From positions 186,001 through 246,442 of the forward strand of contig QPGO01000125.1 of the NCBI GenBank assembly GCA_008632985.1: a stretch of DNA of 60,442 nt, read 5' to 3'. Numbering within the stretch: the stretch's first letter is position 1; each line of letters begins with the position of its first letter. The position numbers were made by a program, and so were the translations under genes. This DNA is from Psammoneis japonica. Lineage: Eukaryota. The notes beneath the pieces were generated by a model that saw only the letters and a list, made by a program, of their open reading frames with translations, did no database searches and was not told where the DNA came from. This document shows positions 3,176 to 55,120 of the stretch, piece after piece.

Positions 3176-5122
3176 TTAAAAGTGCGAGATACTTGCTTTC
3201 CTCCTTACAGCTGAAACACCTAGATATTTGAGTCGACTGATGGAGCTGAGATCCGATGCAATGTAAATATCCCAAATTGATCGCCAAAGCCACTCGTCAA
3301 TGCGCTTGTGGTGATTTGATTTGCGACTTCGTCCGCCACCTTTGATCTTCCATCTTTCCAAGCAAAATGCGGCGTCAGATAGTAGTTGAAGTGTAGCGTA
3401 AGCTACAAGTAGTTTCCGCACAGCATGTGAGTCTTCTTTCAAGAAAAACTCGTCCACAAGCCGACGCACAGTGACATTAAAAGCCGAATAGACCTGAGGA
3501 AGGAGTTTCTTGGTCTTCTTGGTAATCTTAATCCTATCTCTCTGTCCATCCTCTTCAACAAGTTCAAATCGGTTCTCCCATCCACGTCTCTTCTCCCAGT
3601 CATCAACCATGCCCAGGGTATGAAAGAATGAAAATAGGAATTTGGTCAGGAATGCAGGAAGCGGCATGAGCTTGGGCTCTCCCATGTCAAAAAGATAAAG
3701 CAGCTTGTCCGTGTCGAGGAAGAGATTGTGGAGCCCCCCGTCTGCTAGGCCGCCATTCCAGAGTCGCTCTTTCGCGGCAGGACTTTTCAGACTCGTGGCC
3801 TCCTCCAGCAGCGTTCGCCATGAGTCACACGTGTATCCATGAGCCTCCATCGCAGCAGGAGTCTTTCGCTCACCTACAAACACTTGATTCATGAGCGTTC
3901 CTTCTTTGAGCAAAAGTCCCAGCATCGTCGCGGGAACAATCTCATCAGATGTCAAATGCAAGTCCCCACTACGAAATGCCTTGCCCATCCGTCGCAAGAG
4001 AAAGAAGCGACCCTTCTCGGGATGCCAGTTCTTCTTGAAAGAGAAGCCCACAAAGGCGTCGGTCTCTGTCGACACCTCACAAGGCAGCATGCATCGATCC
4101 TTTTGGGCCTTCCTGCACTCGTTACGTACAGTTTCAACTGCGTCTTTTTCACAGGGTTTGGCGAGACTCTGCAAGTTGCAAATGACAACAATGCACTCCT
4201 CTGTGAGTCTCTCTAAGAGCTTCCCTTCCAAATTGCCGTTCGCGAGATGAAACGCCGCAGTTTTCGGGCAAGGCCCACCTGTTGCCTTTTGAGCGAGAGC
4301 AAACTTCCATCGTCGTTTCCTCTGCAATGTCGCCAGCTCATCCACAAATGATTTCAAACAGACATGTCCTTCAGAAGGGGCACCATGGTGCAGAGCGCAC
4401 TTGCTCGTGTCGACATTCGTTTCGGATCCAAGGAGGATGTTCACGGAACTTGACTGGCGATTTGTGCACACTCGACTGCCCTTGACTGTCTTGCAAAGCC
4501 GAACAACGGAGCTTTGTGTAGATGACTTGTCGCTGATGTGGCTTGAACATGAGCGGAAGCTCCTTTCACTGCGGTCATCATTCGAGGCCGGTGGCATGGA
4601 CATGAGACTTCGAGTGGAACAGTCAAGCTCCCTCGTCAAAACTGACTGGTTTTCGAATCGCGTTGAGAAGCTGGCCCAACAGTCTTTTGGTTTCGCCTCT
4701 AAATGATGTGGTGCAATGTGCATCATTCTGAAATCTGGAGTGCGTCGTAGCATGTCTTGTGCTGCAGCTTTCGAAGACTCGTTCATAGCCTGACGTTCTT
4801 CCAGTTCTCTTGAAATGGTCGCCAACGCAAAAAGTTCTTTTGTGTCTCTCTCGGATCCATGCTTCATGACAAGGCTTCCCAGTGTAGGATCCTCTCCACC
4901 AAAGACGCGAACTCCACTGCCTCCACCGCTCAACGTCTTGAAATTTTGCATCGCTGCCGGTCCATGACCATGCGGATGAATTTCAGGCAGGTGCTGGTCA
5001 GGAACAAATTCCATGCGCGCACCCTGGTCATCCAGCGTCACCAGCAATCCGTGATCTTTGGGGACGTCATCCAAGAGGCGCTGATCCTTGGAGCTCTTTC
5101 TTGCGGAAAGCAACCGCAACAT
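3176..5122 (-). CDS. Hypothetical 648-aa protein with weak kinase-like motifs; 5' two-thirds hypermutated
   Basis: Long open ORF with GGGSG..V, vMKHG and DGGLHN..LFDMGEP; no Tyr in the first 429 aa versus 6 in the last 219. Confidence 0.7.
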   Translation of the reverse strand: MLRLLSARKSSKDQRLLDDVPKDHGLLVTLDDQGARMEFVPDQHLPEIHPHGHGPAAMQNFKTLSGGGSGVRVFGGEDPTLGSLVMKHGSERDTKELFALATISRELEERQAMNESSKAAAQDMLRRTPDFRMMHIAPHHLEAKPKDCWASFSTRFENQSVLTRELDCSTRSLMSMPPASNDDRSERSFRSCSSHISDKSSTQSSVVRLCKTVKGSRVCTNRQSSSVNILLGSETNVDTSKCALHHGAPSEGHVCLKSFVDELATLQRKRRWKFALAQKATGGPCPKTAAFHLANGNLEGKLLERLTEECIVVICNLQSLAKPCEKDAVETVRNECRKAQKDRCMLPCEVSTETDAFVGFSFKKNWHPEKGRFFLLRRMGKAFRSGDLHLTSDEIVPATMLGLLLKEGTLMNQVFVGERKTPAAMEAHGYTCDSWRTLLEEATSLKSPAAKERLWNGGLADGGLHNLFLDTDKLLYLFDMGEPKLMPLPAFLTKFLFSFFHTLGMVDDWEKRRGWENRFELVEEDGQRDRIKITKKTKKLLPQVYSAFNVTVRRLVDEFFLKEDSHAVRKLLVAYATLQLLSDAAFCLERWKIKGGGRSRKSNHHKRIDEWLWRSIWDIYIASDLSSISRLKYLGVSAVRRKASISHF

Positions 5123-5599
5123 GGCCCTGGTGCTGACACAGCGTCTCCAACGTTTGCTTTGTCATGGCGTCAAAGAGTCGGACCCACAGCAAATGGAACT
5201 TTCACTGATCCTTTTCTTGTCCCTTTTCATTCCTGCGATGTGTCCTTTTCTCAACTCACTGGGACACCATTTGCAACAAGTTTTTCAACAACAGCAGTGC
5301 AAAAGGCCTTTTGGTTTGTTTCTCTTTTTGTTGCATTGCATCCCCTTCTTCTTCGTCATCATCGAAGATGCATCAACTTCTTGTGAGTGAGATCCTTCTC
5401 ATTTGCGTGCAGGCGCCCCGGAGTTGTGTTGAATGAGCAATGCCATCAGCCATTAAAAAAAATCCTAGAAGCAACACACAAACAATCCATGCGACAACTA
5501 AGAAAATTCACCAGGAGGGAAAACGCGATCAACATCGCTCCCACGATCGAGGCTCGCATCGTCCACCTTCTGTGCTCTGTGTCCAGTGTTGTCACAACT

Positions 5600-6400
5600 C
5601 ACAACCCCTGGGCAATGCTGCGCCAGCATGTGCGGGCAAGATCTCGCTTGGACGATGCATTGAGAATGGTGAGCAGAGTGAAGAAACCAAGAAGTGAATG
5701 GAAAGAAGAAAAGTTCTTTCAAGTGGGTGTTGCGGCGTGTGCTCTTGTCGCTCCACTCATGAAGAAGCACAAAGCTCACAGGTGGGTGCTGGCACCAACT
5801 GTGTTCAACAGTGGATCAGTGGTGTGTGACCACTGCAAGTCCACTGTGTGGACACTTGCAATTCATTGACATCCACTTGGCACCCTCCCACAATGTGCTC
5901 CAAACATGGCCGTTTCCAATGTGACGTCTCATGGGATCAGAGAGCAGTGCTGGGCAATCGCATGCCAGACCAGGTGCCTTGTCAGGAGTGAACCAAAATG
6001 CAGTGGTTGCAATGCAGAATTGATCCAACAATTTCATGGTCACAATTTCCTCAATCCATTGTGGAAACAATGACTGCTGTGACATGTCACTGGCTGGCAA
6101 CGTTGGTTGATTTGGTGACAACATCAACATGTCAGAAGTGTTGTTGTTGTGCAGACATTCACACTGTTTGGCAGTGGGACTCAGTTCAACCAAGACTTGC
6201 AAAATGCAGTGTGATTTGCCAACTGCATTGCTGCAGTCCTTGTCACAGTGTGCTGAGTTGGCTTGTTCCTCGATGGCGCGCGCACAATGTGTCTGGCCAC
6301 ACAAGGGGGTGCCGAGTCAAGCAAAGGAACACACCCAAACCAAGCCCCTTGCAAAGGCATGACAAAGCATGGTGAGGCAATTTTGCACTGCCCTCCTCAA
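5600..6400 (-). pseudogene. Decayed partial duplicate of the COG0523 locus
   Basis: 5600-5790 aligns with 9165-9355 and 5850-6400 with 11080-11610; translation IEEQANSAHCDKDCSNAVGKSHCI versus parent IEDESNSAPYDENYSNAIGQSLYV. Confidence 0.9.
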
Positions 6401-6893
6401 AGCATTCCATGGTGACCAGCAATGGAATGTGCCGCAGGAGTGACAATTGTTCGTTTGGCCAATGGCAGAAGAACGGCAGAGGGAACTTTGTGATTCACCA
6501 GATGTGCTCTCACCTGCACAATTGCGGAACTTCAGAATGAGGGAACCAAGATGGTGGCACACAATGGGACGAGTGGTTTGTCGACCCACGCAAATGGCGA
6601 ACCGAAGCAGCGGCTCAATTTTGCACGGTGTGAGTGGAACGACTTGTTAAAAAATTGTCTGTTCACCTTGCTCAGCCCACCTTTCTAGCATCGTCTTCAC
6701 TTTGTGAATGTCAGCATGCAAGTCAGTGTCACTTGCATGGTGCCTGGGACCTCCATGAAACACCACAGCCGCCAAAAATGCTGCGGACTCCAACAGAACG
6801 GATCTGTGATGTGTTGTGTGTTTGCCAGCGCTTTCAGTGTGCTCCACACGAATCCAGCCAGCAAAGTAGAGTGTCGTTGGTTGGCAAGCTGCT

Positions 6894-8000
6894 TTAGCAG
6901 CCACCGCCGAAATTGCAGAAGACAGGGAAATGTCGAAATTTTGAATGCCAGCTCGTGTTGCCGGGTGCAATGATTCCAGGCTTAAGAGCTGCAATGGGGC
7001 ACTGGTTGTTTCTGATGGATCCGCTCACCCTTGGGATGTCAATGGCATCGGAATCGAGTTCAATGCATCCATTCTCAATCTTGTTGTTCTTGATGAACCA
7101 GTCTTCTTCGACTGCCTTGTTGTTTGGAACGTTTGTGAAGTGACTGACACCTCGAGCCTTGCACCTGGAGTTCATCCCAGAAATTTTCATGCAGTTGTCC
7201 TTGATCACCACGTTCTTCAAGTGCCATGGAAATGTGTTCTCGCAGACGTGCATGAGGGTGCTGGAATCACGGAAATCATTGTCGACAACCTGGATTTCTT
7301 CACCGTTTCTCAATTTCAAGGACCCTCCATCACCAGCGGGCGTCCAACCAGACACGCAGTTGTTTTGGATCACAAGCTTTGTGAAGCCAATTGCGCAAAT
7401 GCCGTGGCCCATTTCCTTTCCACCTGTTCGAATGACTTGATTGTTCTGAATGATGGTGTCATGCGTTCTCTTGTCTAGAATGTTGCCATCGGACGCCTTG
7501 TCAAGCCCACCGTTGATGTTGATGCCTGCATCCAAGAAGCCCTTGATGGTGTTTCCATCGATGCACAATCCAACACTGTGCCACGACCAAAGAATTCACA
7601 TTTGGTGCGCTCAAAAGTGGAGTCAACTACGCTGCCATTCTTGCAACACTTGAACATGACAAACTTGTCCTTTTTGGGGTTCTTGAAAGTGCAGTCAACC
7701 ACTTGTCAGTTTCGGCCCTTCGCATGATCTTGATTGCCTTCAAACAGAATGCTGATGCCAACAAAGTCAATCTTTTTAAAGATCACGTTGCTCAAGTTTG
7801 CAAGAGCAAACTGGACGTCGTTTCCAGAACTGCGGGCAGAGAGCTTGGCAGCGCCACTGCCCCGGAATGTGATTCCGCTCTTGAGTGCAATTGGTTTGGT
7901 GATGGTGTGGGAACCATCCACAGATGGATTGCATCTCCCTCACCAGCTTCATCAATTGCACAATTGCTTTCTGTGTCTTTCCTTGCAACGCGCCCTTTTC
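6894..8000 (-). pseudogene. Right-handed beta-helix (pectin-lyase-like) protein remnant
   Basis: Consecutive ORF fragments 7706-7921, 7475-7702 and 6894-7568 with beta-helix periodicity (IALKSGITFRG, IDGNTI, IIQNNQV, VIKDN, IKNNKI); stop and frameshift; no Tyr in the 224-aa fragment. Confidence 0.7.
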
Positions 8001-8261
8001 AATGCAGTGGTCTTGGCCGCCACACTTGGTGTTCCACAGTGGACGAGAAGGCATGCAAACAGGGAGCTTTGTGCTTGTTTCATCTTCGCAGATCTCGAGC
8101 AGAAAGCTTGCAGACTGTCCGCAGTTGAGAGGAGAAGCAGAAAGCTCAAAACTGGGCAAAAGTGAATGACTGGGGTGTGTCTGGACAGCAGCTGTCCGGA
8201 GAATGGGGATCATGCATGCAGCATGCCAAGCGTTTTCGTTTCATTGTCAAGCTCTCTGCTG

Positions 8262-8933
8262 ACCCCACTCGGGCAAAAAATCGAACCACTCAGTGGTTCG
8301 CAACTTGCACAGCGTGAAACTCGCCACTGACCAGACAAAGCAGCACCTCCCAGCAAATGACTTGTCAATGGAGGCAAAAAGCCATCGTTTTTAATTCAGC
8401 ATGTTGTCAGCTGCCACTCGTGTATGGAGCACGGTCGCCGTCAAATTACCGTCATGGTCACACTCGGTGATTTTCTCACCCCGCAGAAACAACCGCAGCG
8501 AGCAGCGCAAAAAAAAACATCGAACCATTGGATGGTTCGCTGCGTAGATAAGTGCCAGGAGCCCCGTAGAATTGGTGAACCATGAGGTGGTTCGGGAGGA
8601 CGAGCGTAGAAATATACGTGCATTTTGCACCAGAGGGTCGAATGAAAAATCGAACCAGAAAAATGACGCTCACGATGAACAAGACGGTGGCAGTGCGGAG
8701 ACTTTTAAGAACGCAGTAAACCACAAATAAAGCACAGATGTTGTCAAACAGACTTTGCTGCATTGACTGATGCAAAGTTATTACAAATATCTCATTATCT
8801 TTTACGCTTTTACCCATCATCTATCGGTTCGTTTTTGGCTTGCCGCGAACCACTTGATGGTTCGGGGCAGGAATCGCGCGCATTCGTGATTTCGCGCGGC
8901 GAACCACTGCATGGTTCGCGCTGGGAGTGGGGC
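8262..8933. mobile_element. Putative non-autonomous DNA transposon (MITE) with five CGAACCA-N5-TGGTTCG palindromes
   Basis: Short TIR CCCCACTC (8263-8270) / GAGTGGGG (8925-8932); palindromes at 8282, 8521, 8576, 8846, 8900. Confidence 0.6.
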
Positions 8934-9322: not shown

Positions 9323-12189
9323 TCACGAAGAAGCACAAAGCTCGGGTGGATGCTGGCTTTGATGGCCATGACTGTGATCGTGGTGTTCGTGTGAATGCTG
9401 CTGCTCCTGATTTAACTTTATTTCCAAAGCCGCATTCCATAGGTCAAACAACGCGTCGCCCTCGCAACTTCCCGTCCCAGGATTCCAGTGGAGCCTCGAC
9501 TTCTTCATTGGTACACAAGCAGGCGTCAAGCACCATTGTCACACGCTTCTGATCCAACGACTGTCCAATAATCACCAGCTCTTGTTGCCGATCGCCGTAT
9601 GGTTCGTGCCACAGCGGGAAAATGGCCTCGGCTAGACCTACGGGCCAGTCACATTTGTCAATCTCAGCCCACCACGGATTTCCGGGAAGAATCGAGTAAT
9701 GCTTGCCCGCAAACGAGAATTCCCCTTGCAGCTGGGGGCAGTTGACCAGCCACAAAAAGCCCTTGGCACGCAAGACGCCACCAAAGGGAGTTTTTTGAGC
9801 CTGCAAATCATCGAGTACTCGGCCAAGGCGTTTAGGATGAAATGGTTTGAGAGCGCGGTACGTAAAGGATGAAATGCCATACTCTTCGGTTTCGGGTGTG
9901 TGCTCTCCGATACGAGCCTCTTGCAACCATCCTTCATGACGTTCCGCTTCCGACATGGAAAAGAGACGAGTTCCCAAGACAGCTTCCAACGGCACGTTGC
10001 TAAAAGTGGATTCCACCAGCCGGGCTGTCGGATTCATTTGAGCCACCAACCGTCGTACCTCGCCCAATTCATGCGGTTGAATCAAGTCACACTTGTTCAA
10101 TACAATAACATTCGCAAATTCAATTTGATCGCACAGCAAGTGCGAAATGGTACGTTCGTCCTCGGGGTCGGACTGCCAGCCTCGTGCCCGCAACGACTCC
10201 AAGGCGTTTAATTCAGCCAAGAATTGTGAGCCATCCACGACCGTGACCATGGTATCAATCAAGGCAATGTCGCTCAGAGTCAATCCAGTCTCGTCATTGG
10301 CAAAGGTAAAGGTCTCGGCCACAGGCATGGGTTCCGATATCCCACTACTTTCAATCAACAAGTAATCAAAGGTACCCTGGTTTGCAATCTTGGTTACTTC
10401 AATCAGCAGGTCTTCTCGCAAAGTACAGCATATGCATCCGTTGGACAACTCCACGAGATGCTCTTGGCGTTGATGAATCGTCACTGCCTTTTGCTGAACC
10501 AGAGCGGCATCAATGTTGATCTCACCCATGTCATTGACCAGTATGGCTACACGGAGCCCCTGATAATTGGCTAGTATGTGGGAGAGCAAGGTGGTCTTGC
10601 CCGATCCCAAAAAACCGGAAAGGACCGTGACGGGGAGTTTTGTGAATGAGTCTTGGTCCATACTCGTGGGTTTGGTAGCGAGGGGAGGTTGTTGTTGTAG
10701 GAGGTCCTTTGGTTCTTCGTCTTCTTTCTGGTTCGCAATAACATGCTGTGATTGTGTTCCCAATGTTGACCCATAATTATCATTAGCCATCATAATTTCC
10801 TGACCAAATATACCTCCCCATTTCTGCGGCACCAACCCTACAGTGGCTGCTTGATGCAGTCCCAGAGACAGAGTGCGTAAAGCAGCCACGGATGCTGCAT
10901 CCAAGCGTCGGCACATATTGGGATAGGTATACCAATCATAGGGAGACTCGTCATCTTCCATGTCGGCATCTTCCAGAGGACCTTCGGGTGGTGGGTCCAT
11001 GGCATACAAGGGCCAGAGCGTCACCAAGACGGGCCGTCCATTGGGCGCATACACGTGGACGGGCGGGACATGAGGCATGGCTTGCACTTGGTCGGCGTCC
11101 ACTTGACAGCATTCCACAATGCTCCGAATGGCCGTTTCCAAAGACGTCTCATTGGACCGGGGAGCCACGCTGGGCAATCTCATGCCAGACCAGGCGCCTT
11201 GCAAGGAGCGGACCAACACGCAGCGGTTGCCGCGGAGAACCAATCCACCAATTTCGCGATCACAATTTTCCCAATCCATTGTGGAAATATCAATATGCGT
11301 TAAAGTATCATTGGCAATGTTTGTTGACTTGGTGACAATGGCAATTTCGGAAGTGATATCCTCACAAAGGCGTTCGCACTGTTTGGTAATGCGACTCATT
11401 TCAACCGAAACTTGCGAAACGTAGAGTGACTGACCAATCGCGTTGCTGTAGTTCTCGTCGTAGGGTGCTGAATTGGACTCGTCCTCGATGGGTTCTTGCC
11501 CAAACATTGTGTTTGGCCACAAGAGGGTACCGAGACGAGCAAAGCAAGACACCCGCGCCGATCCCTGTGGAAAGGCATGACGAAGCATGGCGAGGCGCTT
11601 TTGCATGGCCGATTCGTCTGTAAAGACCACGTGCAAGGGCAAGTTACATACTGTGACGGCAGGACCCACAAGGGACCACATTTTGAAATTTGGGTTGCCT
11701 CTGCATGTGAAGTACCAATTTGAGCAAGAGCGGAGCAAGGTCATCCGAGGCCACAAGGCTCGCGTGACGCAGAACGAGGCGTTCCAACAAACGTAAAATA
11801 GACTTGGCCAACCCCTTGTCGAGTTCGGGCTTTTGAAGTTCTTTTTGCAAGGCATCTGTTTGTTCTTCTTCGGAATGGAACATGGGCGAAAGATCCAGGA
11901 CAAACAGCGTCTTGAAAGAATGATCGGTACCGATTTCGTGACGCCGCATCAAGTCTTGCGCTTGCGCTGCAAATTCATACATGACATGACGCCGCTCTTC
12001 ATCGTCTCCATCATACTGACTCTTCCAGCTCCGGCTCTCTTTCCCACGGCTGCAGTGGAGCACGACACTGGCATTCTGGATTGCTCCATCGCCTTGACGA
12101 GGCACCTTGTACGGTCCATAGCCTCCATGGAACGCAAACACGGACGCTGTCTTCCATTCCGTTTTGTCAGCTCGTGCTTTGCGTGACAT
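9323..12189 (-). CDS. COG0523/CobW-family G3E metallochaperone GTPase fused to an N-terminal unknown domain and a NUDIX-like domain, with His-rich tail
   Basis: GFLGSGKTT, LVNDMGEINID, LSNGCICC, IESSG, NKCD, CobW_C (LRAKGFLW, YGDRQQELVIIG). ORFs 11644-12189, 9444-11903 and 9323-9529 join if one extra base is removed at 11672-74 and at 9471-73, giving tail HSHEHHDHSHGH. Confidence 0.9.
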
Positions 12190-30185: not shown

Positions 30186-30469
30186 GGTGCGTCTTTTTTC
30201 CTCACAGAACGTGCGGATGTGCAGGTCTTAGAGGGAATTCGTGGGGTTGGTATGTTTGTACCGGTACGCACATGCACGTAGACGAATGAGAGACGAACCA
30301 CTCACCGTAGGAACCCGTAGGATATGTACCGGCAGTTACAAGTAAGCGGTAGCACAGTAAGAGATGTGCTGAGACGGACAGACGAGGGCGATGCGGAGCC
30401 CCGCCCGCCCGCCGCCCGCGCCTCGCCCATGGCTGGCTGGTGGCTCGGCTACGGCTGGGCGCCCATCCA

Positions 30470-33260
30470 CACCCAGCCCGCCCAGCCAGCCATGCCAAGG
30501 TTGTCCATGTCATCCAGAACCCAATCATCATTCTGAAGACACCATCAGCTTCAGCTTCTGCACAAAAGTTGCAGCAGCACCCAGCCAGAGCACAATCATG
30601 TTTGCCAGCAGTGTGGCGGAAGGGAGGAGGGGGCGGGGGCAACTTCTCTTTTTTTTTTCTTGACGTTCGCACAAAACACTCTGCTGAGCTCTGTGCTGTG
30701 CTTTCTCTTTTGCACACGCTCTCATCTTCCATCCTCTTGTTTTTCTCCATGCTCTGTCACTTTTTTGCTGTGCTGCAGTGCAAACATTCTCTGGCACACC
30801 CCCCACAGGCTCTTTGGCTTGTTGCAAAACACAGCGCCAGTGCAAGCTTCTTTGGATGACAGCCGCCACTTGAGAAAATCTTTGGAGACCAGTGCCAGAG
30901 AAAGCAAAAGCCAGATTGGCTTGCTTTCTGAGTGAGCAGCAAACCTGCACCACATGTGCACTTTCAACTGGGTTTCTTTCAGAGAGTGCACAGGTGGAAA
31001 AACAGGCTCGTCTCTCATCATTGGCAGAGAGTGATCATGGTGGGAGGTCACTTTGGCTCCTTGTGTGTTGGGAAGGCAGAGTTGAGCAGTCAACACAGCA
31101 GTGCAGCAGAGATCATCACACAACAACCTGCAGCTCTGCCACAGATTGTTGTCAAAATTGTCAAAAGGCTTTTTGACATTTTCTTGAGACCTTGTTCTGT
31201 CAAAAAAGTTTGACTTCTTTGGCAAAGCTCCTGCAGCAAAAATTTTTATGGCATTTTGTTGCACGCAAAGCTGTCAGCAGGTGACACAGCCAAGTGGCTG
31301 AAATGCCAAGCAACAATGTGCAGAAACTCATCACATGCTGAAATCAAGACAAAATTGCCACTTGCTTGTTTTTCTGAGAAAGTCATCTCTGCTGGTGTGA
31401 GCCCTTTTGCAAGAACTTTGTGCGAGGTCATGAAACCAGCACTTGGCCAACACAAAGTGTGCCCTTGATGTGCAATGCATCCCAACACACCAGCTCTCTG
31501 TCTGTCAGAGGGAAGTGATCTTGCCATCTCAACTGCTGAGCACAGCACTCCACCATCACCTCTGAGCAACTCAACACCTGATGGACCCATGTTTGGCATT
31601 CTCAAAAGGCAGGCTGCCCCTCATGCAAGCCAATGAAGAAGACATGACTCCCCAAGAATCATCAGGTGAGAGAGCTCAGCTTTCAGCACAAAACCCATGG
31701 AAAAGAGCGCACTGCACTTTCTTTCTAAGTTTTGGCAAAGTCTCTTCTCTCAAGATCTTCAGCAGCCACACCTGTGCCAATTTTTCCATTCTTGGCTGCC
31801 AACAAGAATTTTTAGAGAGCCAAAGATGATGAATGGCAATTCGTGGCGATTCCCCGGGAGTTCACCCTTCCCGTGGAAAAACATGGCAGAAGGTGGCAAT
31901 CCCAGGGAATTTTGAGAAAATGCACGGTGGGGCCAAACTGAGGCACACAGAAGGGCACAGCCAAGTTGTTGATGACTTCTGTTCAGCAACACACTGCTGC
32001 TGACAAAGCTGTCATCTTTGGGTGGATCTGCAACAGAACACGGGCTCTGCTGAGAAAAAACTTGGAGAGCTCTTGCTTGTTTTTTCTGTGGCTGTGGAGG
32101 CAGAAGGTCAGAACTTGAGATGGCAGTGCGTGCAAGTCATCACAAAGTCAATGGTCAGGCAGAGGTGCTGCTGCAGCAGAGAGGCAGTCTTGGAGCATGG
32201 ACACACTGACAGCATCAGCAAAACTGAAGGCAGCTGTGCTTGTGCTGCATCATGCACCCCCATGTGCGAGCATCGGGCAGAGACTGGACTTTCAGTTGGG
32301 CGGGTGCAATGCTGCCAGCTCTCAAGCTCTCACAGTTGAGCACCACTGTGGTCCCAGCTGGCTCTCTCCAGCCTGACAAGATTTGCCAGCAGGCAAAGCA
32401 GCAAAAAGAGACAATGAGCGGGCAAACACCAAACCACTGTTTGGTCAAGAGCACTTTGCCTGGCTGTGCCAACTGGAGCCACGTGCTGCTCCAAGGAAAA
32501 TCTGGCTCTAAATGTTTCCCCCAGCAACAACAGGATTTCCTGACAGCTGGCAGAGGGGAGCTCTGCCTCCATGAATTTGGAGTGGATTGCGTGCTCTTGT
32601 CCTTCCTCATCGGGTGGGAAGAAGGTGTGTGAGTTCAAAGAGGTTGTTGAGCTGGCAAGCGTGCATGGAAATGACTGGGTGCCATTGCTGCACACTTTCT
32701 TGAGGGGCTGTGCAACCAATCCTTGGAATTTTCTGCAACTTTGCAGGCCATCTTGGTCATGAAAAACTTTTTGAGTGCTGCATCAAAAGTGCCCTCTTTG
32801 CCACAGAGCAGCGCTTGCGTCATGCTGGCTCACAGCGCATCACTCCAGCCCCTCTTCAGCACGCGCCAAACAGAAGGCATGGTGACAAGGCATGGTGACA
32901 AGACAGAGACAGGGAAGACATTTGTGACATCCAGAGGAGCAGCAACACTCTTTTGTTGAACTGCCACCTTGGAAGAAAGCAATGTCGTTTTCTGTGTCAT
33001 CTTCAGAGCCCAGCTTCAGAATCAATTTTTTCTGGAGTCTGTCAGGGTTGCCAGTGTTTCAGTCAATGTGAGACAGAAAGCAGCCACTCAACATTTGGCA
33101 AAAGCTTGTGTTGATTTTCTGCTGCTTTCCTCTCGCACAATGTGCCAAGCACGCATGCCATCTTGTTTTGTTGTGCTGCACACACGAACGGACGAGTGAT
33201 CAAAAGTGCAAGCCAGCCAGCGAGCTGCCACAGCACCTCACTTCCCGTCGTCTGACTGGC
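30470..33260. other. TpA- and CpG-depleted hypermutated block 2 (unclassified repeat-derived DNA)
   Basis: About 4 TA in 2.8 kb by eye (31247, 31726, 31813, 32509); no recognisable protein. Confidence 0.85.
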
Positions 33261-34016
33261 GTTCTATGGTGTCGCACTAGCTCTGAAGAGTCGTCATTGT
33301 CATCCTTTCCGTCGGTTCCTTCCCGCCCACTCCCAGCTTGCTTGGTCGGTTCCATGACCTCCTGCCTTCCACCGCTGTAGGTCTAAGTGATGAATTCTGT
33401 ATCGACATTTGAAAAGAAGAGTTGTTAAATAGGCTGACAGGACAATGTCGTGCATCTGTAAACCAGGGCAGTTGGTCATCAGAATTCCACGTAATGATGT
33501 TTTCGTTTATGAACATTTTTATACGCTGGCTGAAGGGTAAAGGTGGTGGTAGCAGTCTACAGCACCGTATGGATGGTGTCCGGGTACTGTACACTGTAAC
33601 TTGTATGCCCGCATCATTCTTCAATTGTGTCTTTTTTCCGGTAGAGTAATTCCTTGCATTTGTTCGCTGCTAAAGTCATCAGTGCGTGCCGTCATTCTTT
33701 CGTTTTTTGTTCTTGGTACAAGAAGTATTCCCCACCTGCCGCACCAGCAGTTCCAACAGCAGGGGTCAGCGGGTACGACAAAAGTTAGAGAAGACTCGAG
33801 GACGATATCGATAGGCGAGCGCTTCAAAACTGCAAGTTAGCAGTAGACGAGCGTTTGCGTTGTTCCACCCATCTACTTGTGGGTGCACAGAATCAGTGTG
33901 GTAGGTGGTAGCACAAATAGATCGAGCGCATTCCTCCGGTTGTGCAGTTGTGTGCTGTCCTCATATACTATACTAGAGCAGATCGCGCCCCACGCACCCA
34001 TATAGCATACCATATA

Positions 34017-44902: not shown

Positions 44903-47900
44903 ATATAATGGTAGTAAAGAAGTAGTAGGTGAGGCACTTATGAATACATTCCGGGTTTCGTCTGTTGCTAGCACTTTGGCGTTGTCTGGAAATGTCTGCC
45001 AAACCAAATCGAAAGATTGAGCGATGCTGATGCAGGGGAGGGGCATCAAGTGGGGATGCCGACTTCTTGACAAAAATCGCCCCGCGATGTCCGAATTCCA
45101 GTCCGTGTGTGTCTACTAAGCTAGTCTGCAGGCAAATTGTCGATTCTGGATTCGCAATTCAAAAAACTCGTGACTCACGCATCACGCAAGTCATCATCAA
45201 CACGGCCCCAGACCAGGCAAAAACAAAAAGCTTGTTCCAAAAGCTTGTTCCAGCTCTGTTCCTTTGCATTGTGGGTCTTGTGCTGCCATCACTTGAGCTG
45301 GAACACATGCAGTCAAACTTTGACAGCAGCTTGATTGGGGTCAGGCCGGCAAATGTGGCACGCAACAACAAAAAGCTGCTGGGTGCACTCTTTCTTTCAT
45401 TGGAGCTTCTGGCCCACTTCTGTCCATTGTTGTGTGTTGCACACTTTCTTTCCTGCCAACACAGTGGAATTTTTTAGAGGACAAGCATTGCCAACAGCCA
45501 ACTTTTTTGGTGCTGTGTCAATGCCCCGCCCAGCACTGCGGCCATCAGCTTCTTGTGCTGCTCCTCAGCCCTTTGTGCAGTTGAAGCATCACGGAAGAGG
45601 AAGCAAAACAACTGATGGTGCAAGCCATTGAGACATTTGTGCTGTCTTTCACAGGGGAGGTTTCTTGTGGATGTTTGTCAACACATGACAATGCACAGCC
45701 TGCTGCATCCACGGCATTTGGCCACCCCCTGTTGCCATTGGCTTCTTGAACCGCCACCCCCCGCATGTGCTGCCCATTGGTCTGACTGCCACATTACATT
45801 GTGCATTGTTGGGGCTGGCTGCATCCTCCACAACAAGCTGCAAAGTTGCCGACAGAAAATGCTGCAAGAACATCAGTTGCTGTGCCAACTGGCAGCAAGG
45901 CAAACAATGATGAAAAGCAGAAGATGCAGAGAGGGTTGGCACAGGCCCGTCATTCCCAAAAAAGAAGAGTGTGCTTGAAAGCTGTCAAACAGTGCCAGGG
46001 GGCAGTGGACTCTCCCCATGCTGTGGCAAAAATTTGCATTGCAAGGAAGGCGCACCCTTTTCTTTGAAGACATTGATGGCTGCACGCTGTTGTGGATTTC
46101 TTTTGTTGCTGCTGATGCTGCTGTTGCTCAAAGGGGAGAAGAGAAGAGGCAGACTCAAGTCTGTTTGCTCCATGGGACCTGAGATTGTGAAAGTTCAGCT
46201 GAGGACTGCTCCAGGAAAAGCCCCCAATTGGAAAGACTGGTGGGCCAAGCAAGTTGTTTGAGCAGTTGAGTGGAGTCAAAAACTCTGTCAGCTTTAAGGT
46301 CAATCAGGATGAGCTGACTGCAGCTGCATTTGAAAAGTGCCAAAAAAGTGCAGTTCAGGCTGGGCAGATGAAGCTCAAGGGAAATTTCTTGAAGCCAGGT
46401 GATGCGCGCAACAGCGCAGTTGCAAAGGACTGTGCGCAGTGCCTCAGGGACAAAAAAGAAGAAGAGGAGGAGGACATAAAAGAAGTCAGTTTGGCTGGGG
46501 CCAATGAAATTGAATGCCATGATTTGCAGCTCAGGATTCTGTCTGAGGAATTTGCAAAATGCATCAAACTGCTTGAGCAGCTTCTCATGCATGAAAAACT
46601 TGCTGCCAAATCTGAAATGCTGCACACTTGTGGTGTGAGACACCAATGCTTTCTTGCACTGCTGCAGCCACTGGTCTGTCAAGCATGACAGCAGCCACTG
46701 TTTCAAGTTGTTTTAGAGGCATTGCCGTGTTCTCCACTCAAACCTTGAATGCAGGAGACCATTTTCTCTAATGTGTCAATGCCAGATCCCCTTGGCCTCT
46801 CTGCAAGCTCAATGATGCAAAAGCCAAGTCATCAAATGACCTTCAGAATCTCAGCAGGCCTGTTCCAGCCCCAGGTGATGAGCAATCCATCATGTGAGAG
46901 GCTGATTTTCTGTGCAGTTTGGCACATTGAACTCCTTCAAATTTGATCATTTTGAAAATCAAAAGGTGAGTGCACACAAAAAACATGAGTTTGTTTGTGC
47001 ACTCACCCTTTGATTTGGGAAAAACTGATTTTGAAGGAGTTCATTGCGCCAAATGCAAAAATGAGCCAGTGATGGGAATCGAGCCTGTGCACGTCACCTG
47101 GAGCTGGAGCAGGCCAATGGCAAGCAACATCAGGCTTTGTTGTCTGCATCACATGCACTGTTCCATTGCCTTCTTGGCATTCTTGGAATCAGCCCAGCAA
47201 TCAGCTGCCTTGTGGCTGACTTTGCCACGCATGCTGCACCTTTTCAAACAAGCTTTCAACTGCTCTCTTCACTGCAGTCACATTGTCCAGGTTTGATGTG
47301 GTGGCTGGCGCATGATTTAATCAAATTTCTCACATTCCTGAGTTGCAGGGTCTTTTGCTGGCAAAACCTTGGCAGGAGCAGACTTGGCTGCATCAGAGTC
47401 TCTTGGCTTGGTTTGCAGATGACAGCTGAGTGGATCAACAGATTTGACAAAATCATTGTCCATCACACCACAAGGCGTGCCACACATCTCTGAAGGTGTT
47501 CTTTTTGTTTGGTTTTGTTGGCTCACACTTGATCCTCATTGACAGGCTTGGGGCAAACTGCCAAAGAATGAGATGAGTGCCACAGCAGCCAGAGCATGAA
47601 ACCACACATTTTGGTGGTCATGGTGAGCCATTTTCACTCAATGGGAGTGACAAATGCTGAGTCTTGGCTGAAGCACAGAGCAAAGAGATGGCGACACCAG
47701 AGGCGGAGCTGCCAGAGGTGGTGGTCATGCCACCAAACTTTTTGAGCTTGGAAGAAGTCTTGATGAGATGATCCAAAAGACAGCCAAGCTCTGGCCCACA
47801 AGAAGCCAGTGGGAATTGCAGACTGACCTTTCCAGTCTTGAAGATTTTCAAGTCTTGAATGGCCACCAGCACAGATGAAAGAGACAACTTTGCTGATGCC

Positions 47901-50900
47901 TTCTCTGTCAAAGCTGGCAATCTTGAGGCTGATCCTGTCATCAGAAACCAAACAGAAAGTGCCTTCTTCCAAGTCACTTTGCTGCATCTTCATCACAACA
48001 ATGAAGAACAGGGAGCTGAGAAGCATTCTTGGCAAAGTGGAGTTGTGGGTGAGATGCAGATTCTGGCTTGCCCAGGTTTCATCCAGATCCTCAAGTGCCA
48101 CGCTGTGCTTTTTGCAGCAACTTCTCCACTTCCATGATCATGAAAGCAATGTTCCATGCAAAGGTCATGGCCTTTGAAAGCGGCGGGGTTGATGATTTGA
48201 AAAACAGCAGCCACCCATGTTGTGCTTGATGTGACTCAAGCGCATGGTCAAAATGGACTCAGCCAGATCACAGTTGCTTGTCTTGAAGCTTGTTGTTGGT
48301 GTTGTTGATGTTGATGATGAGAAGGTCAAATTTCATCTGCTGCTGCTTGGCTGTGGCTTTCTGGAACAAATCTTTGAGCTTGCCTGGGTCTAAACTGGGC
48401 CTTGGCATGCAGGGCTTTCACCAGAGTTTCTTGGGGTTTCTTGGGGCAGCATGCACTTGCACTTTCCTGCCATTGACAACTGCTTCCATTGTCATGGCCA
48501 ACTTGGCTGTCAGACAGGCTGGCTTCTTCAGACAAGGCAGCTCAGGAGCAGCATGCTGGAAGGCAGCAGGCTGGTGTTCTTTGACGAACTGCTGGTGTCA
48601 AAGGATTGCACACCAAATGAAGTTGAGTCTTGGCCACTGGCAGACTTGTTGTCATTGTCCAACATGCGTGGTTTGTCAGGTGGGGCGAGTTGCCAGAATT
48701 GCAAAAATGCTTTGTTGCTCCTGAAGAAGCAAGTGCCATTGCATTTCTGCTGCAGAGGTGGCTGGAGCATGATGCTTGGGCTCCCAACCTGTGACGACTC
48801 TTGGCTGAGAGCAAACTGTTGGCCAAGCATGGGGATGACATCACTGGCAGTGCAGCCAGCAACAACAGACAGTGTTGACATGCTCTTGTTGTTGTCGCCA
48901 ATGTCTCATCACACCAATGATGAGATCATGAGAAAAAGTTGAGAAGACAGCTTCAACACAAAGAAAGTGGGAAACCACACATGCAAGTGTGGAGCATGCA
49001 CAAACTGTGCATGAGTTTGCACTGTGTTGACAGGGTCTGCCAGTTTCAGAGGTTGTCCTCACAATGTCTGTCCTCCAGGGAGTTGCTTTGGCAGGAGCCC
49101 TTTGATTCCCATTGTGAGTGATGGTCCCTGCCTGTGTGATGGTGTGCCACATTGTGCACGAGAAGAGCCAGGTGAATGTCATCACTGTGGTGGCAGAAAC
49201 TCTGCCAACTGCTGGAGGGCTCAGGGTGGCAAACAGACATTTTTGCCAACCGTTGCTGGTTGTCAACTTTCTGTTGTGAAAGAGAATTGCTTGGCTGACT
49301 CAAATCAGTGCAGTTTGAGCAGAGTGAGCAGCAACCTGCAAATTTTTGTGGGAAAGTTGCCAACAGCATCATGAGTTGGTTGTTGCTGGGACAACTCAAA
49401 CAGAAGCTCAACAAAGCTGTGGCTGGCTTGAACAACTCTGCTGTTGCAGCCAGAAATGAGGCTGGCAATGGTTTGGGAGAGGAAAAGCCCCCCTCCTGTT
49501 CCAAGCACGCTGTGCTTTGTGCCAATGACTGTTGAAAGATGAATGTGCCAAATCCATTTTTGGCAATTGCTTCTTGACAACAACATGGAACCCCGTGTGT
49601 TGCTCATGCAACATGGCTTTTGTGCTGCTGGAGCACGCCAGATGGGAAGGCAATGAGGTGACAGCTCAGTTCAGTCATTCAAAGATGGGCATGTTGGGAG
49701 AGCAAGCTGCCAGAAAACAGCACACACGTGCTGGCTCTTTAAATCCTGCAATTTGTCCTGTTCTTTTCACTGCCAATTTTTGTGGCACTTTTGTCCATGG
49801 ACAAAAGTCGGCCCCCTTGGGCAACAGTCAGTGTGACAGATTTCAAAGCTGCTCAAATGAGGGGCAAAGCAATGCAATGCAGAGAGGTCACCCAGCTCCT
49901 TGGAGTTGATCCAAAAAGGGTTGGTGTTTGCTCCATTTGGAAAGGTGCATCTGCACATTGCTGCAATGGGGGCACATGTCTGGTCACATGCTGGGTGTCT
50001 CCAAGGTCATGAAAAAAAGAGGAAAAAGAGAAGAAGAGGAGAGAATGCCACATGTTCAATTTGCACATGCAACGGCAAGATGTTTTGTGCTTCTCATGCT
50101 GCTGCAATGACACAGATGGAAACAACAGACCATCCATGATGTGGCAACAATTGATGATCAATTTTGTCACCACACCTTTTCCTTCCAAAAATGTTGATTT
50201 GTGACATCCACATTTTTTCTGTGACAAGTGTGTCAATGGCAAGAGAGGTGAGAAAACATCCAAAAATGGACAGAAGCTCCTTCTTGTGGCTGCGCTGCTG
50301 CTTGGACTCTAGATTTTCACAACTTGCACAGCAACAGCCTGTGTTTTCTGTTTGCTGCCAAACCTTTCCCACCAAAACTGTCCTGCTGACAAGCAGCATG
50401 CTGTGTTTCTGTCTGACAATGGCGCCAATGAAAAGAGAAGCAGCAGCTGACAAAACCCAAACAAGCAGGGCAAACGAAAGCCCTTTGTGTGGCTTTGCCA
50501 CAAGACTCAGGCTCTCAGCTCTCACAGCTTGCTGTGCACTTCAATTTGAGTCATTTGCACTTGACAGATTAAAGGTTGACTCTCAGGGATTAAGTGCCAG
50601 GTTCTGTTGTCACATTGTGCCTGTGAGTGGCAGCAGCAGCAAGGCTGCTTGGTGGCCCAGCAGCTGGCTCTGTGTGAAATGGCTGCAAAAGGAAAGGATC
50701 CACCTGCAACACAAGAGGCAAGTGATCAAGAGTGCATTTTGCTGTGGTTTGGTGTCAAAGGAAATGTGTTTGTTTGTGGCACTGTGCTGGCAAGACCAGC
50801 TGCAGGGTGCAGCTCTGTCAGTGACCAACCTGGTGGGAAGCTCTCCTCTCATGACATTGGCATTGGGTCAGATCATGCAGCTGCGCTGCTCTGCCAGCTC

Positions 50901-51772
50901 TGCATGAAAATGATTGCAAAAGGAAAGGAGCCACCTGCAGTGCAAGAGACAAGCAGCCAAGTTTCCTGTGGCAGGCCACTTCTTGAAGAAGAAGCGCTGC
51001 AGGCAGCAGCTGCACTCTAGACTGGCCAGCCACAAAAGATGAAAGGACCATGATGTTGCCTGCAAGACAAAAGGACCACATTGACTGCAACTGGCACCAA
51101 ACAACTGCAGGAAATTTTCTTTTCTTCTGAGGGAAAATCCAGGGGAGCAAGAGCAGCTCAGCATGACCCAAAACCCAGCTCTTGTGCTCACACATGATGT
51201 GCACATTGATTTCCCCCTCATTGGCTTGTTGAACAAAGGAAACAAAGTGGGTTTCCTTTTTTGTTTTGTTGCACAATGTGAGCCAGATTTGTCACACCAA
51301 CTTGAGCTTTTGTGGGCTTGCTTGGAAAAGAGAGCACACTTGAAGAAACCACAGAAGCACATCTTTTTGCCCTTGAGAAAGTTCCCCCCCCCCCCCCCCC
51401 CATGGCATCTGCCTCACTCATTGTTGAGCGCAGTGCACAAAGAATCAGCGTGTCTTGGCAGCCACAGGCTCTGGACAAATCAACAGCCAGATGAAAGGAT
51501 CATGATGGTTGCAACTGCGCACTGAATTGCCAATGAATTTTTCCTTGCCTTTCCTTGTCCAAGGAAGTTTGGGGCCAAACAAGCAATTCCCCATGATCAA
51601 AAACCCCAAATGATGCAGCGGCTGGCATGTTCACAGATGATTCCATCTGCGGCATTGCCATCAAATTTGCACGCTGGAAAAATGTGCAGATTTCTGCTTG
51701 TTGTCATCAAAATGGAGTTTGCATCATTGTCAAATTCTGCACAAACCCTGGTGCATTTCCTGTGCAGTTCAT

Positions 51773-51928
51773 GAAGAGCCACCTGTGCAGCTGGACCATT
51801 GCCCACTTCACGGTCGCCACACAAAATGCAAAAAACTGTTGCCAATGATGGAAGAGCCACCTGTGCAGCTGGGCCATTGCCCACTTCACAGCCGCCACAC
51901 AAAATGCAAAAAACTGTTGCCAATGATG
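51773..51928. repeat. 78-bp tandem repeat, 2 copies
   Basis: GAAGAGCCACCTGTGCAGCTG...GCCAATGATG at 51773 and 51851. Confidence 0.95.
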
Positions 51929-52199
51929 CCTGCATTGCCAAGGTCTGAGCTCCAGATTAGAAGCACCACAGCAGCTGACAAAGACTCTGCTGCCATCTGC
52001 CATGCTGTCCAGTTTGTGGCATGATGACAATCACAGGAGTCAACAGGTTGCATTGATGCATTGGCTGTGTCACTTGTTGATTGACCCCCCTGATGAAAAA
52101 TTGCAAAAGGAACTTTTTCCATGGTGTGCTGAGTGTTGTTGAGCATGCTTTCCAGAAAAATCATTTGATTGCAGCGAAGCATTCCATGCTCTGATGCAC

Positions 52200-55120
52200 A
52201 CTTTTGGCTCCATGTTCACCTGTTTTTGTGCTGGTTTGTGATGTGGTTTGTGCCAAGAGTGTGATGTTGAGCTTCATGTGCTTGCACTGCACTCCTTCTG
52301 ATCACACTTCCCCAAGCAATCTGCTTGTGTTGGTTGACTTGTGCCAGGCAGCTGGAACAAAAACACAAGACACACACACGCACACACAGCGACCACCATC
52401 AAGACACCTGCATGAACCATGTTGGGTCTTGAGGTCCTGGTGCTGTTGAGACTTTTTGGGAGACATTTCCCAAGCAGGCACATGTCAAGGCATGCATCAC
52501 CACTTGGAAAGCAGCTGTGTCTGCTGTCACAAAAGAAAATGTTGACTCGCTCCTCTTGAAGAAAGCCACTCAGAAGGCTTGCGACTGTGTGGCAAGTCTC
52601 GCTCCAAAAAATCAAAAAGAACTCACTGCCATTTCAGATTCAAGTCATCTTGTTGATTTGCTTTTGACACTCTGTTGCCAACACAGGTGTGGGGAATGCT
52701 CAATCATGTCATCCTGGACCAGCACCTCAACAATGGTCTGATGGCACTGGACTTGCTGGGCTGTTGGTGAAATTTCAATGACAGCGCTGCTGCTGACTGT
52801 CCAGACTGTGAGTGCTTTTGCCACGGCATCAATGGAGCTGTGCTTCTCCATCTGGGCACAAACACTCACAGCAGACAGCAGCAGCTTGGCAACTTGGGGC
52901 ACTTGCTCATGATGAAAGACCTTTTGGCTGTGTTGGCAAAATCTCTTTCATTTTCCAGCAACGCCAAGCACTTGCAAGCATTGGCACAACTTGGCAGAGT
53001 TTTGAGCTCAAACTTGAAAACTTGGAAAGGATTTCTGCTCATGACTGCAGCACTGGTGACTTGAGCAGCTTTGTGCCAGATTGGAAGCAGGTGCTGAGGA
53101 CAGAAATCATGCACTGACCATGCTCCAGAAACAGCACAAGTTCAAAGATGACCACAAACCCCCATTTGTTGATGCCCCCAACAGCTTCAAGGAGTTGAGT
53201 GGGGCCCCAATGTTGTGCAATGCAAGGCACCATTGGCCATCTGTGGGGCAAGAAGGCTCGCCCTCAACTGCAGCAAACATTGGAGGAGTGTTCCAACCAA
53301 TGGACACTTCAGAGCAGCAGCCTTCCTGTTTGGCAAGGGGTGTTGCTCAAGGCAGCTCACTTGGCATGCCATGTGCACTTGCCCATGAATTGAGAGCTTG
53401 GTTTCCCAGCGCACTTGCCCCTTGATGCACAGATGGCTCATCTGCACACCAGCAGTGGAAAGACTCAACAGCCTTTGGGATTTTTCCTTGACACTTTGAG
53501 CCACGGGTCCCATGAGCATGATTGCTGCTCCACACCAATGACTCCAAAACACCCCCCTGCCACCATCGTCCCAGAGTGCAGCCTGGAAAATGACACCAAG
53601 AGCTGCTTTGGTGATCTTGGGTTGCCTTTCCTGTCACTTCACAGGCAGCCATTGTGATCTTGGAGGTTTCATTGGCAAGAACAAAATGTTTGAATGGCAG
53701 ACAGACAACAGATCTGATGTGCGGACCTCCTCTGTCATCAACAACAGTGTTGCCAAGAGTGCAGCTCATCACCCTCAGATTGCACATGCCAGTTTTCAAA
53801 AATCCCTGAGCCATCATGAAAGTGACAATGTGCTCAACGAGTTTCAAAGGACTGTTGTGGGCCATTTGCCAATGAAGTCAAAGGGGCAGCCAAGAATCAA
53901 TTCCTCCTGTTTCCTGTGCTGCTTGTTGTTTGCAAGACCCCAGCTGATGATGACCCAAGAACAGCCTTGTCAGCCCTCCCAATCAAATTTGCAGGACTGT
54001 CTGTCTCACATTCAATGAAGTCTGCAGCACACAACTGCGGGGCAAGCACTCTCACATGACCCCACATGATTGACTCAATCCATGGCTGTCCCACACCCAG
54101 CACCCTGGCGATCCAGCACAAGGACATGCATGGTTCATGAAGCAAGGTGTGAAACAGCCAAGAGGAAAGTGCAAGTGCACGAGGAAGCACTTGGATTGAT
54201 CTTCTGCACTCTGCTCAATGAAAGGGCCTGAGCTCTTTAGAGCACGGCACCAAAGATGGTGCTTGGTTGTCAGCACATCCTTCTGCACCTGGCGGCACCA
54301 TCACTGAGCTCTCTTTTGCCAAAAGTTTCAGGGGGGCTGTTTGTGCACACCATGGCCAAGATCCTCCCAGCCTGCCCCAGTGTTCGATGGTTTTGAGTGC
54401 AAATTCTCCATCCAACATGCCCTTCAATGCAAGAGGGGTGGACTTGTCATCTCTGGACAAAACGAGAGAGCCATGAGGAGGTCATCAGTGCGACCTGTTG
54501 GCCAAGACAGCCAAACAGCCTTCTTGCTCAGCTTGCAATGAGCCCATCATCAGCCTTGGTTGCACCTCACAAAGCCCAAATGCCACAATCCAACAACTCA
54601 TCAGGTGCAACAGCAAATGCAATCAAATCAAAAGATGGTGATTGTGGAGATGTTCCAGTCCGTGGCTGGCAAGAAAGATCAGAGGCTGACGACGATGCTT
54701 CATTTTTGATGTTGGAGTTTCTGACACAGATGCCAAGAAGTCATGCCTGTCCAAATCACCAGAAAATGGTCCCAGTGGCTCATGAAAAAGAGAAAAAATG
54801 CAGGTGTCTCAAGCCCTGCCTTGCCAGCATCATCGTTTCACACTTTTCACGACATCTTTTGCGGGGGGGCTGGTCTCTTGGCAAAGAAGCCAAAGCAACC
54901 CTGCAAATGGCAACAGCAGCACAGTTCATGGACAACAAGTGACAAAAGCCACACTCTGAAGCACACAGCTTTGTCAATGCAAGAATGAGCACAATGATTG
55001 AGAGGGCATCTCACCACTGCCTGCGTGGTGGCTGGAGAACCCCACATCAGCCACCCCCAGCTGGTGCCAGATGTTCCCAGTTGGAAGATGGTGCTGCTGG
55101 TCTTTCCCCATGCAAGCTCC
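52200..55120 (+). mobile_element. Degenerate CRE-like non-LTR retrotransposon (RT + CCHC finger + restriction-like endonuclease); 5' limit approximate
   Basis: Ordered fragments: RPFG.VG, EAGAE..NHA, FVDAPNSFKEL..MLCNARHHWP, GVAQGSSLGM, LGGFIG, HPQIAHASFQKSL, KFSIQHALQCKRGGLV, GDVPVRGW, HEKEKKCRCLKPC, LGKEA, RASHHCLRG. Confidence 0.8.

Follow-up and report, generated by a model that had tools for sequence, protein, structure and literature searches.

Domains depleted of TpA in a diatom contig, and an adjoining gene that has probably been recoded

Introduction

How does a conserved gene come to lack tyrosine over two thirds of its length and still keep its reading frame open? The question is raised by a contig of the diatom Psammoneis japonica (NCBI GenBank assembly GCA_008632985.1, contig QPGO01000125.1), of which 60,442 nucleotides (positions 186,001 to 246,442 of the forward strand) were analysed. 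This whole stretch is referred to as the window, and positions are counted from its first letter. An open reading frame (ORF) of 648 amino acids (aa) lies near the left end of the window, and its 5' part runs into the first of three blocks in which the dinucleotide TpA (TA in the counts below) has almost disappeared. We consider it likely that a mutation process acting at the level of the chromosome converts TpA to TpG or CpA, that it goes near to completion inside bounded domains, and that it has recoded the gene at the fringe of one of them. A first-pass annotation, made from the sequence alone, had proposed that an A-to-G process spills into this gene, travels further or faster than the decay of 5-methylcytosine (5mC), and recodes without creating new stop codons.

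Loss of tyrosine in the first 429 codons

The reading frame is open along its whole length. Tyrosine (Tyr) occurs solely at residues 430, 476, 545, 575, 620 and 633, that is, at none of the first 429 residues and at 6 of the following 219, which is exactly what the first-pass annotation had counted. Each of 39 aligned orthologues has between 3 and 13 tyrosines in the region aligned to residues 1-429. Nucleotides 1-1287 of the coding sequence hold 10 TA (observed/expected ratio, o/e, 0.13) and 73 CG (o/e 0.87), bearing out the earlier observation that CG stays abundant here while TAY has largely gone; the last 660 nucleotides hold 23 TA (o/e 0.51) and 31 CG (o/e 0.82). For comparison, metagenome contigs supplied 14 orthologous genes of nearly full length, whose 5' part has 25-81 TA (o/e 0.37-0.64) and a CG o/e of 0.73-1.25.

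Alignment with orthologues had been suggested as the way to learn whether His and Cys now stand where Tyr once stood, and for most Tyr columns they do. Nine columns within residues 1-429 have Tyr in at least 30% of the 39 orthologues; at these the assembly has His (CAC or CAT) five times, Cys (TGC) twice, and Glu and Ala once each. All three such columns after residue 429 are still Tyr in the assembly. Seen from the other side, 31 His and Cys sites occur in residues 1-429, with Tyr the commonest orthologue residue at 6 and present in at least five orthologues at 9, while none of the eight His and Cys sites in residues 430-648 reaches either mark. The peptides that had been singled out as suspicious fared unevenly: H135 (in MMHIAPHH; Tyr in 38 of 39 orthologues) and H253 (in GHVCLK; Tyr in 28 of 39) do replace Tyr, and C255, C336 (RNECRK) and C348 (LPCEV) stand where the orthologues have residues other than Tyr.

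The excess extends beyond Tyr. Scored against a consensus built from the 14 closest orthologues, residues 1-429 show 72 differences, of which 17 are of the type that TA loss would produce and 4 are of the reverse type; the 40 differences in residues 430-648 include 2 forward and 3 reverse. The same count made for each of the 14 orthologues as a control gives 0-8 forward changes. Twelve of the 17 match the codon context exactly: six are TAY (Y, pyrimidine) to CAY or TGC, two are ATA to ACA (I281T and I307T), and four (I207V, K262E, T275A and T423A) are A to G directly behind a T-ending codon. Tyr to His or Cys and Ile to Thr, both foreseen by the first-pass annotation, are thus present in the assembly; the third replacement that it foresaw, Val to Ala, is found only in the second genome described below.

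Several of the recoded sites are positions conserved in 37-38 of the 39 orthologues, and therefore the changes have not been filtered by selection. Under the standard code, a change of TA to TG or CA is unable to make a stop, so the earlier claim that no new stops arise follows from the genetic code itself. A further site, R315C (codon TGC; Arg in 26 of 39 orthologues), shows slight CG decay setting in here as well.

The closest orthologue, a metagenome sequence (alignment row P0001, 56% identity), carries 8 forward and 3 reverse changes of the TA-loss type and ranks top of the 14 controls. This may be chance, or a faint trace of the same process in a relative.

A dead duplicate at the core of block 1

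The recoded gene part forms the left margin of block 1 (coordinates and compositions of all features are collected in Table 1). The core of this block is a dead copy of part of the neighbouring gene for a CobW/ZNG1-type GTPase, derived from aa 114-298 of its N-terminal extension. The intact gene, with a TA o/e of 0.3-0.7 and a CG o/e of about 1, serves as the reference from which changes can be read. Of its 13 TA in the alignment, none is kept in the block copy: 7 have become TG, 5 CA and 1 GA. Of its 45 CG, 7 are kept, 16 have become TG and 16 CA. As a control within the same alignment, TG is kept at 47 of 59 sites and CA at 49 of 63, and AA, GA and CA are kept at 59-78%. The alignment also holds transversions and indels.

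TA and CG are lost over different spans. The CG minimum of the block (o/e 0.17-0.32 in 300-bp steps) lies at 5801-6400, exactly on the CobW copy, and CG rises outward from there, reaching 0.5-0.7 towards the right and 0.8-0.9 within the gene. Near-zero TA extends past the duplicate by 1764 bp on its left side and by 1999 bp on its right, so that the plateau is roughly symmetric. Inside the gene the edge is a gradient, with 16, 10, 4, 3, 1, 4 and 0 TA in successive 300-bp steps from 3101; the other block edges are sharp to within about 100 bp.

Two side observations concern this neighbourhood. The N-terminal extension of the CobW/ZNG1-type GTPase is 438 aa long and has no Pfam family. Between block 1 and the intact gene, a palindrome, GAACCA-N5-TGGTTC, occurs in five copies within 635 bp (8283-8917), against 0.2 expected, and nowhere else in the window. 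Depth in the second genome, described below, is about 750-925 at 8226-9000, compared with about 55 nearby, and the palindrome element or motif is therefore multi-copy in the genome; it could be a repeat resembling a miniature inverted-repeat transposable element, or a common cis-element.

Blocks 2 and 3 and the order of TA and CG loss

Two further blocks, to the right, carry the same signature with lower CG. The TA-free zone exceeds the CG-poor zone at all four of their edges, by 80-200 bp. The first-pass annotation had called for such a plot of TA and CG across block edges and had itself picked out the two fringes flanking block 3, and both proved to be as described.

Table 1. Features of the window, with dinucleotide o/e values for the blocks and the background
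Feature	Position	Strand	Basis or composition
Conserved diatom gene, 648-aa intact ORF	3176..5122	minus	ORF call and homologue search
Recoded gene part (aa 1-429), TA nearly gone, CG retained, Tyr to His/Cys	3835..5122	minus	Orthologue comparison, TA gradient
Block 1, TA-free domain	3835..8391		21 TA in 4557 nt, TA o/e 0.07, CG 0.64, TG 1.57, CA 1.59
Decayed copy of DNA just downstream of CobW-type gene	5599..5793	minus	85% identical to 9166-9357
Block 1 core, decayed copy of CobW-type gene codons 114-298	5855..6392	minus	73% identical to 11081-11610
Intact CobW/ZNG1-type GTPase gene, unmutated reference copy	9444..11948	minus	PF02492 E 1e-52, PF07683 E 5e-21
Block 2 left fringe	30359..30479		TA ends (single TA at 30450), CG dense to 30479
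Block 2	30451..33264		4 TA, TA o/e 0.02, CG 0.25, TG 1.63, CA 1.79
Block 2 right fringe	33134..33264		CG returns about 130 bp before TA
Block 3 left fringe, TA-free, CG-normal	45123..45203		6 CG, 0 TA
Block 3	45123..55379		15 TA in 10257 nt, TA o/e 0.02, CG 0.17, TG 1.86, CA 1.76
Block 3 right fringe, TA-free, CG-normal	55164..55379		55241-55379 holds 11 CG, 0 TA
Background	Rest of window		About 1800 TA, TA o/e 0.61, CG 0.98, TG 1.17, CA 1.19

G+C is about 0.49 in the blocks and 0.47 in the background, unchanged because the losses of TA and CG cancel. For block 3, arithmetic from the counts gives about 360 TA and 465 CG missing against about 880 extra TG and CA. TG and CA follow one another in random order (runs test z of 0.8, -0.7 and 0.3 for blocks 1, 2 and 3), with no strand bias and no tracts. 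Each TA has therefore been resolved separately and on either strand, a pattern that fits site-by-site action on a self-complementary dinucleotide; A to G on one strand and T to C on the other look alike in sequence. TA-free tracts are not a general diatom trait: in the surroundings of the orthologues (317 kb in 43 metagenome loci), none of 568 windows of 1 kb has a TA o/e below 0.15.

The absence of strand tracts bears on an RNA route, in which a double-stranded-RNA deaminase would hyper-edit transcripts from adenosine to inosine and the product would be copied back as retro-copies or by RNA-templated repair. The direction of change, A to G, is the expected one, and ADAR-type enzymes favour U and disfavour G before the edited A. 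However, the loss is confined to TA (13 of 13 lost, while AA, GA and CA are kept at 59-78%), and strand-coherent tracts are lacking. The domain also runs continuously over a resident gene part, spacer and pseudogene with a gradient at its edge, and CG loss goes along with it. We regard this route as scarcely plausible.

A Pfam scan of all six frames of block 3, block 2 and 5123-8700, with stops read as X, gave no family, and the longest ORF of block 3 (249 aa) had no homologue among 1.84 billion representatives. When 64 ORFs of the window were searched against the blocks with tblastn, the CobW copy was the sole match. A comparison of the whole window in purine/pyrimidine 26-mers revealed neither kinship between the blocks nor terminal repeats. 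A recognisable transposon was considered and rejected, as no block frame has a Pfam family and neither terminal nor internal repeats appear in purine/pyrimidine space.

Small repeats do occur, inside block 3 and elsewhere. At 51773-51928 there is a 78-bp tandem duplication with 96% identity, whose two unit differences are both A/G, and at 50667-50953 a 231-bp-spaced repeat with 82-85% identity. Outside the blocks, short repeats at 37976-38531, built from units of about 80 and about 320 bp, and another at 28742-29421 with a spacing of 380 bp have normal or high CG and TA and are not hypermutated.

A second genome

Public DNA run X1, from the same organism, supplies a second genome, and its k-mer contigs were compared with the assembly. 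The run holds 0.71 of the words sampled from the stretch, with contigs over 3000-9000 at a depth of about 40-65; two other runs, X2 and X3, contain almost none of it.

The differences fall where the gene enters the domain. At 3269-3589, all six lie on TA sites of the assembly, where 6 of 11 TA and 0 of 16 CG have changed. At 3664-3963, 4 of 4 TA and 3 of 17 CG have changed, along with one transversion. The total for 3269-3963 is 10 of 15 TA against 3 of 33 CG. In the protein these changes amount to Y430H, Y476C, Y545H, V416A, L459P and V573A. X1 is more converted than the assembly at 3380-3876, and its TA-free zone enters the gene at least 450 bp deeper. At 5272-5275, X1 keeps TACG and the assembly has TGCA. 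Codon 24 is CAC in the assembly and TGC in X1, and codon 358 is GTG in the assembly and GCA in X1; each pair represents alternative products of one ancestral TA, and the two genomes would therefore have mutated independently. Wider sequence context did not separate converted from unconverted TA (10 and 5 sites). Read in this way, the comparison shows a hypermutation process that would be recent, and it is probably still active.

The same comparison weighs on whether the blocks are simply old. Under passive decay, DNA that is old, silent, late-replicating or poorly repaired would have come to equilibrium under ordinary context bias, without dedicated machinery, and the gene part would have been pseudogenised. 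No genes or domains can be recognised in the blocks, methylated DNA ordinarily undergoes CpG decay, the background itself is short of TA (o/e 0.61), and the CobW copy must be old, given its transversions and indels. Against these points, TA conversion is 96-100% complete, yet about 80% of TG and CA is retained in the same alignment. Edges are sharp to 100 bp or less, and the ORF is intact with its 3' third untouched. The young fringe, where 10 of 15 TA and 3 of 33 CG differ, separates genomes that are otherwise about 99% alike. Passive decay is improbable on this evidence.

A reading artefact, in which modified bases or polishing errors were read as TG or CA in place of TA or CG, is very improbable. 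X1 may be the same sample as the assembly, and some sites do show CA against TG doublets between the two. However, the TA-free sequence stands at full and uniform depth (40-63) in the k-mer contigs of X1, with no half-depth pair of strand versions, and one contig of 1279 nt over 5501-6778 has only 10 differences from the TA-free assembly sequence. TG and CA are randomly mixed, the paralogue alignment has the indels and transversions of real divergence, and X1 exceeds the assembly in conversion at 3380-3876.

The gene and its neighbours

The 648-aa protein has 133 homologues (E <= 1e-3), the closest being P0001, and every homologue with a named organism is from a diatom. It matches none of the Pfam families and no sequence in the PDB. 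A structure model was confident (predicted local distance difference test score, pLDDT, 84.6), and the top Foldseek matches to this model were all of the APH, choline-kinase or methylthioribose (MTR)-kinase type; they were weak (E 7e-3 to 9e-2; template modelling score, TM, 0.26-0.45). The predicted fold thus weakly resembles small-molecule kinases of the APH/choline-kinase/methylthioribose-kinase group. Members of the APH/choline-kinase-like family share a bilobal fold like that of protein kinases, in which a Lys binds the nucleotide and a catalytic loop is present.

Nearby ORFs are those of ordinary nuclear genes, encoding an LCIB-type carbonic anhydrase, the CobW/ZNG1-type GTPase, an alanyl-tRNA synthetase and a protein kinase. 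A tblastn search of the 43 metagenome loci around orthologues found neither the LCIB-like nor the CobW-type protein, nor the product of the ORF at 13476-14309. Several of the ORFs at 14459-20062 have no Pfam family and are related to one another as diverged paralogues, in both orientations (61-71% identity; for example, 14930-15159 and 19408-19637, or 17149-17404 and 19801-20062); TA and CG are normal throughout this local family.

One X1 contig of 5446 nt aligns solely to 4448-4717, 270 nt of the 648-aa gene, with 26 differences, and the summed depth about doubles there. Part of this gene may be present a second time at another place in the genome.

A proposed mechanism

Taken as sequence comparison, the results demonstrate a DNA-level, domain-limited conversion of TpA to TpG or CpA that is more complete and reaches farther than CpG loss, and that would recode a gene without making stops. 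We infer that the process is enzymatic and targeted. A more specific reading, which we hold tentatively, is that an undescribed and still active TpA mutator, linked to genome defence or heterochromatin and perhaps a DNA adenine deaminase, spreads from a nucleation site into adjoining genes and forms, beside CpG methylation decay, an A·T-to-G·C counterpart of repeat-induced point mutation (RIP).

The steps would be as follows. A TpA step of duplex DNA would be changed in place by an A·T-to-G·C transition, either through deamination of adenine at TpA to hypoxanthine or through a mispairing modification of the T or the A. This step would be recruited to silenced, CG-methylated chromatin, which would start from dead or duplicated DNA and extend by 0.1-2 kb. 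CpG would decay afterwards in the methylated core, more slowly or over a narrower span. In block 1 the domain would be centred on the dead CobW duplicate, with a leftward leak over the promoter and first 429 codons of the 648-aa gene, and this leak would recode Tyr to His or Cys, Ile to Thr or Val, and Thr to Ala, with no stops. With its promoter and first two thirds inside the domain, the gene is predicted to be silenced, or else under relaxed selection, and changes at invariant residues would be tolerated because of this predicted silencing.

The original claim that the A-to-G process moves further or faster than 5mC decay is supported: TA loss runs ahead of CG loss at the block edges, in the gene and in X1. 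Its two adverbs are inseparable here, as the retention of TA and CG fits both a faster TA process with a single rate ratio of about 0.1 in core and fringe and a wider TA footprint. The CG loss itself is presumably 5mC decay.

Several points weigh against this mechanism. The proposed chemistry of the TpA change is deduced wholly from sequence comparison, and the loss of CG might belong to this process as its slower branch instead of being 5mC decay. All of the evidence is drawn from a single window and a single run, and X1 could be the very sample that was assembled, or the other haplotype of the assembly. The site-by-site account covers 40 of the 287 differences between X1 and the assembly; the tally of A>G 71, T>C 59, C>T 56 and G>A 46, with 42 transversions besides, takes in the multi-copy stretch at 8226-9000, and a few differences lie outside TA and CG steps (5259, 5267, 3916 and 4070). 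Five of the 17 residue changes of the TA-loss type are at odds with the codon context. Neither block 2 nor block 3 shows a repeat, a transposon domain or a pseudogene kinship to anything within the window. The partner of the dead copy, at 11081-11610, is unmutated, so that a rule of both repeat copies being mutated fails.

The last two points bear equally on a RIP-type defence triggered by duplication, in which long duplicates and their flanks would be mutated, perhaps premeiotically, and the 648-aa gene would be affected either as a neighbour of the CobW duplicate or as a part-duplicated sequence itself. The core of block 1 does coincide with a duplicate, the X1 contig over 4448-4717 hints at a second partial copy of the gene, and leakage into flanks is known for RIP. 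Yet the partner copy has been spared, and for blocks 2 and 3 the window yielded no duplicate, also when compared in purine/pyrimidine space. The base change is also the opposite one, with TA destroyed and not created. As to a possible enzyme, RID-related DNMT4 genes occur in many diatoms, with their function given as unknown in the part of PMC9998398 drawn on here, but DNMT4 is a cytosine enzyme. A RIP-type defence in the strict sense is therefore unlikely.

The reading that we prefer, a TpA-directed process of its own, would have several consequences. Natural removal of TpA by A·T-to-G·C change would add a new mutational chemistry to those of genome defence, and would point to an unknown DNA-modifying enzyme that might be useful for base editing. 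Such a defence may silently recode or kill neighbouring genes; as no stops arise, annotation based on ORFs would be blind to it. The signature can be searched for in other algae: TA and CG gone, TG and CA doubled, and G+C unchanged.

Relation to known systems

To our knowledge, cytosine is the sole base at which an organism's own DNA is known to undergo targeted hypermutation (RIP, AID/APOBEC and 5mC decay). In the literature on diatoms and algae that was searched, no description of TA-to-TG/CA hypermutation was found, although papers beyond those searched could hold one. The evidence fits a repeat- or heterochromatin-directed hypermutation whose chemistry was not found described in that literature. 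Among adenine modifications, N6-methyladenine (6mA) was considered as a possible cause; it sits at ApT. It has been linked to transcription, according to the part of a preprint drawn on here (10.1101/2024.10.28.620566).

Decay of 5mC at CpG, as seen in vertebrates, plants and diatom transposons, resembles the CG component of the blocks, with 32 of 45 CG changed to TG or CA in the block 1 core and a strongly lowered CG o/e in blocks 2 and 3 (0.17-0.25). However, it is unable to remove TA, and loss is not of CG alone: the gene part keeps CG at the ratio given above and has lost most of its TA. TA loss is also the more complete of the two, comes first in the fringe, and extends 80-200 bp farther, or 1.3 kb in the gene.

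The footprints left on retroelements by ADAR (A to G) and APOBEC (G to A) share with the blocks the hypermutation of non-functional DNA and, for ADAR, the net change from A to G. Those footprints are strand-coherent, lie in retro-copies and are not confined to one self-complementary dinucleotide, whereas the changes here are strand-random and lie in place in a resident gene. Pfam frame scans found no reverse transcriptase or integrase domain in the blocks.

The closest likeness is to RIP of Neurospora and other ascomycetes, which depends on a RID/DNMT-type enzyme and a premeiotic stage. As in RIP, dead or duplicated DNA has undergone a regional, near-saturating, dinucleotide-specific hypermutation by transitions in sharp domains. 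The change leaks into an adjoining gene, recodes it and declines with distance (the TA gradient of codons 1-429, which runs farther in X1). It is associated with decay of the cytosine-methylation type, and the core of block 1 is a duplicate. In RIP, all copies of a duplicate are mutated; here the partner of the block 1 copy is untouched, and blocks 2 and 3 have no duplicates within the window. RIP is a fungal process, and the present host is a diatom. The chemistry also runs the other way: RIP turns C·G into T·A, chiefly at CpA, which gives rise to TpA and lowers G+C, whereas the change seen here is from A·T to G·C, destroys TpA (o/e 0.02-0.07 in the blocks) and leaves G+C no lower than in the background.

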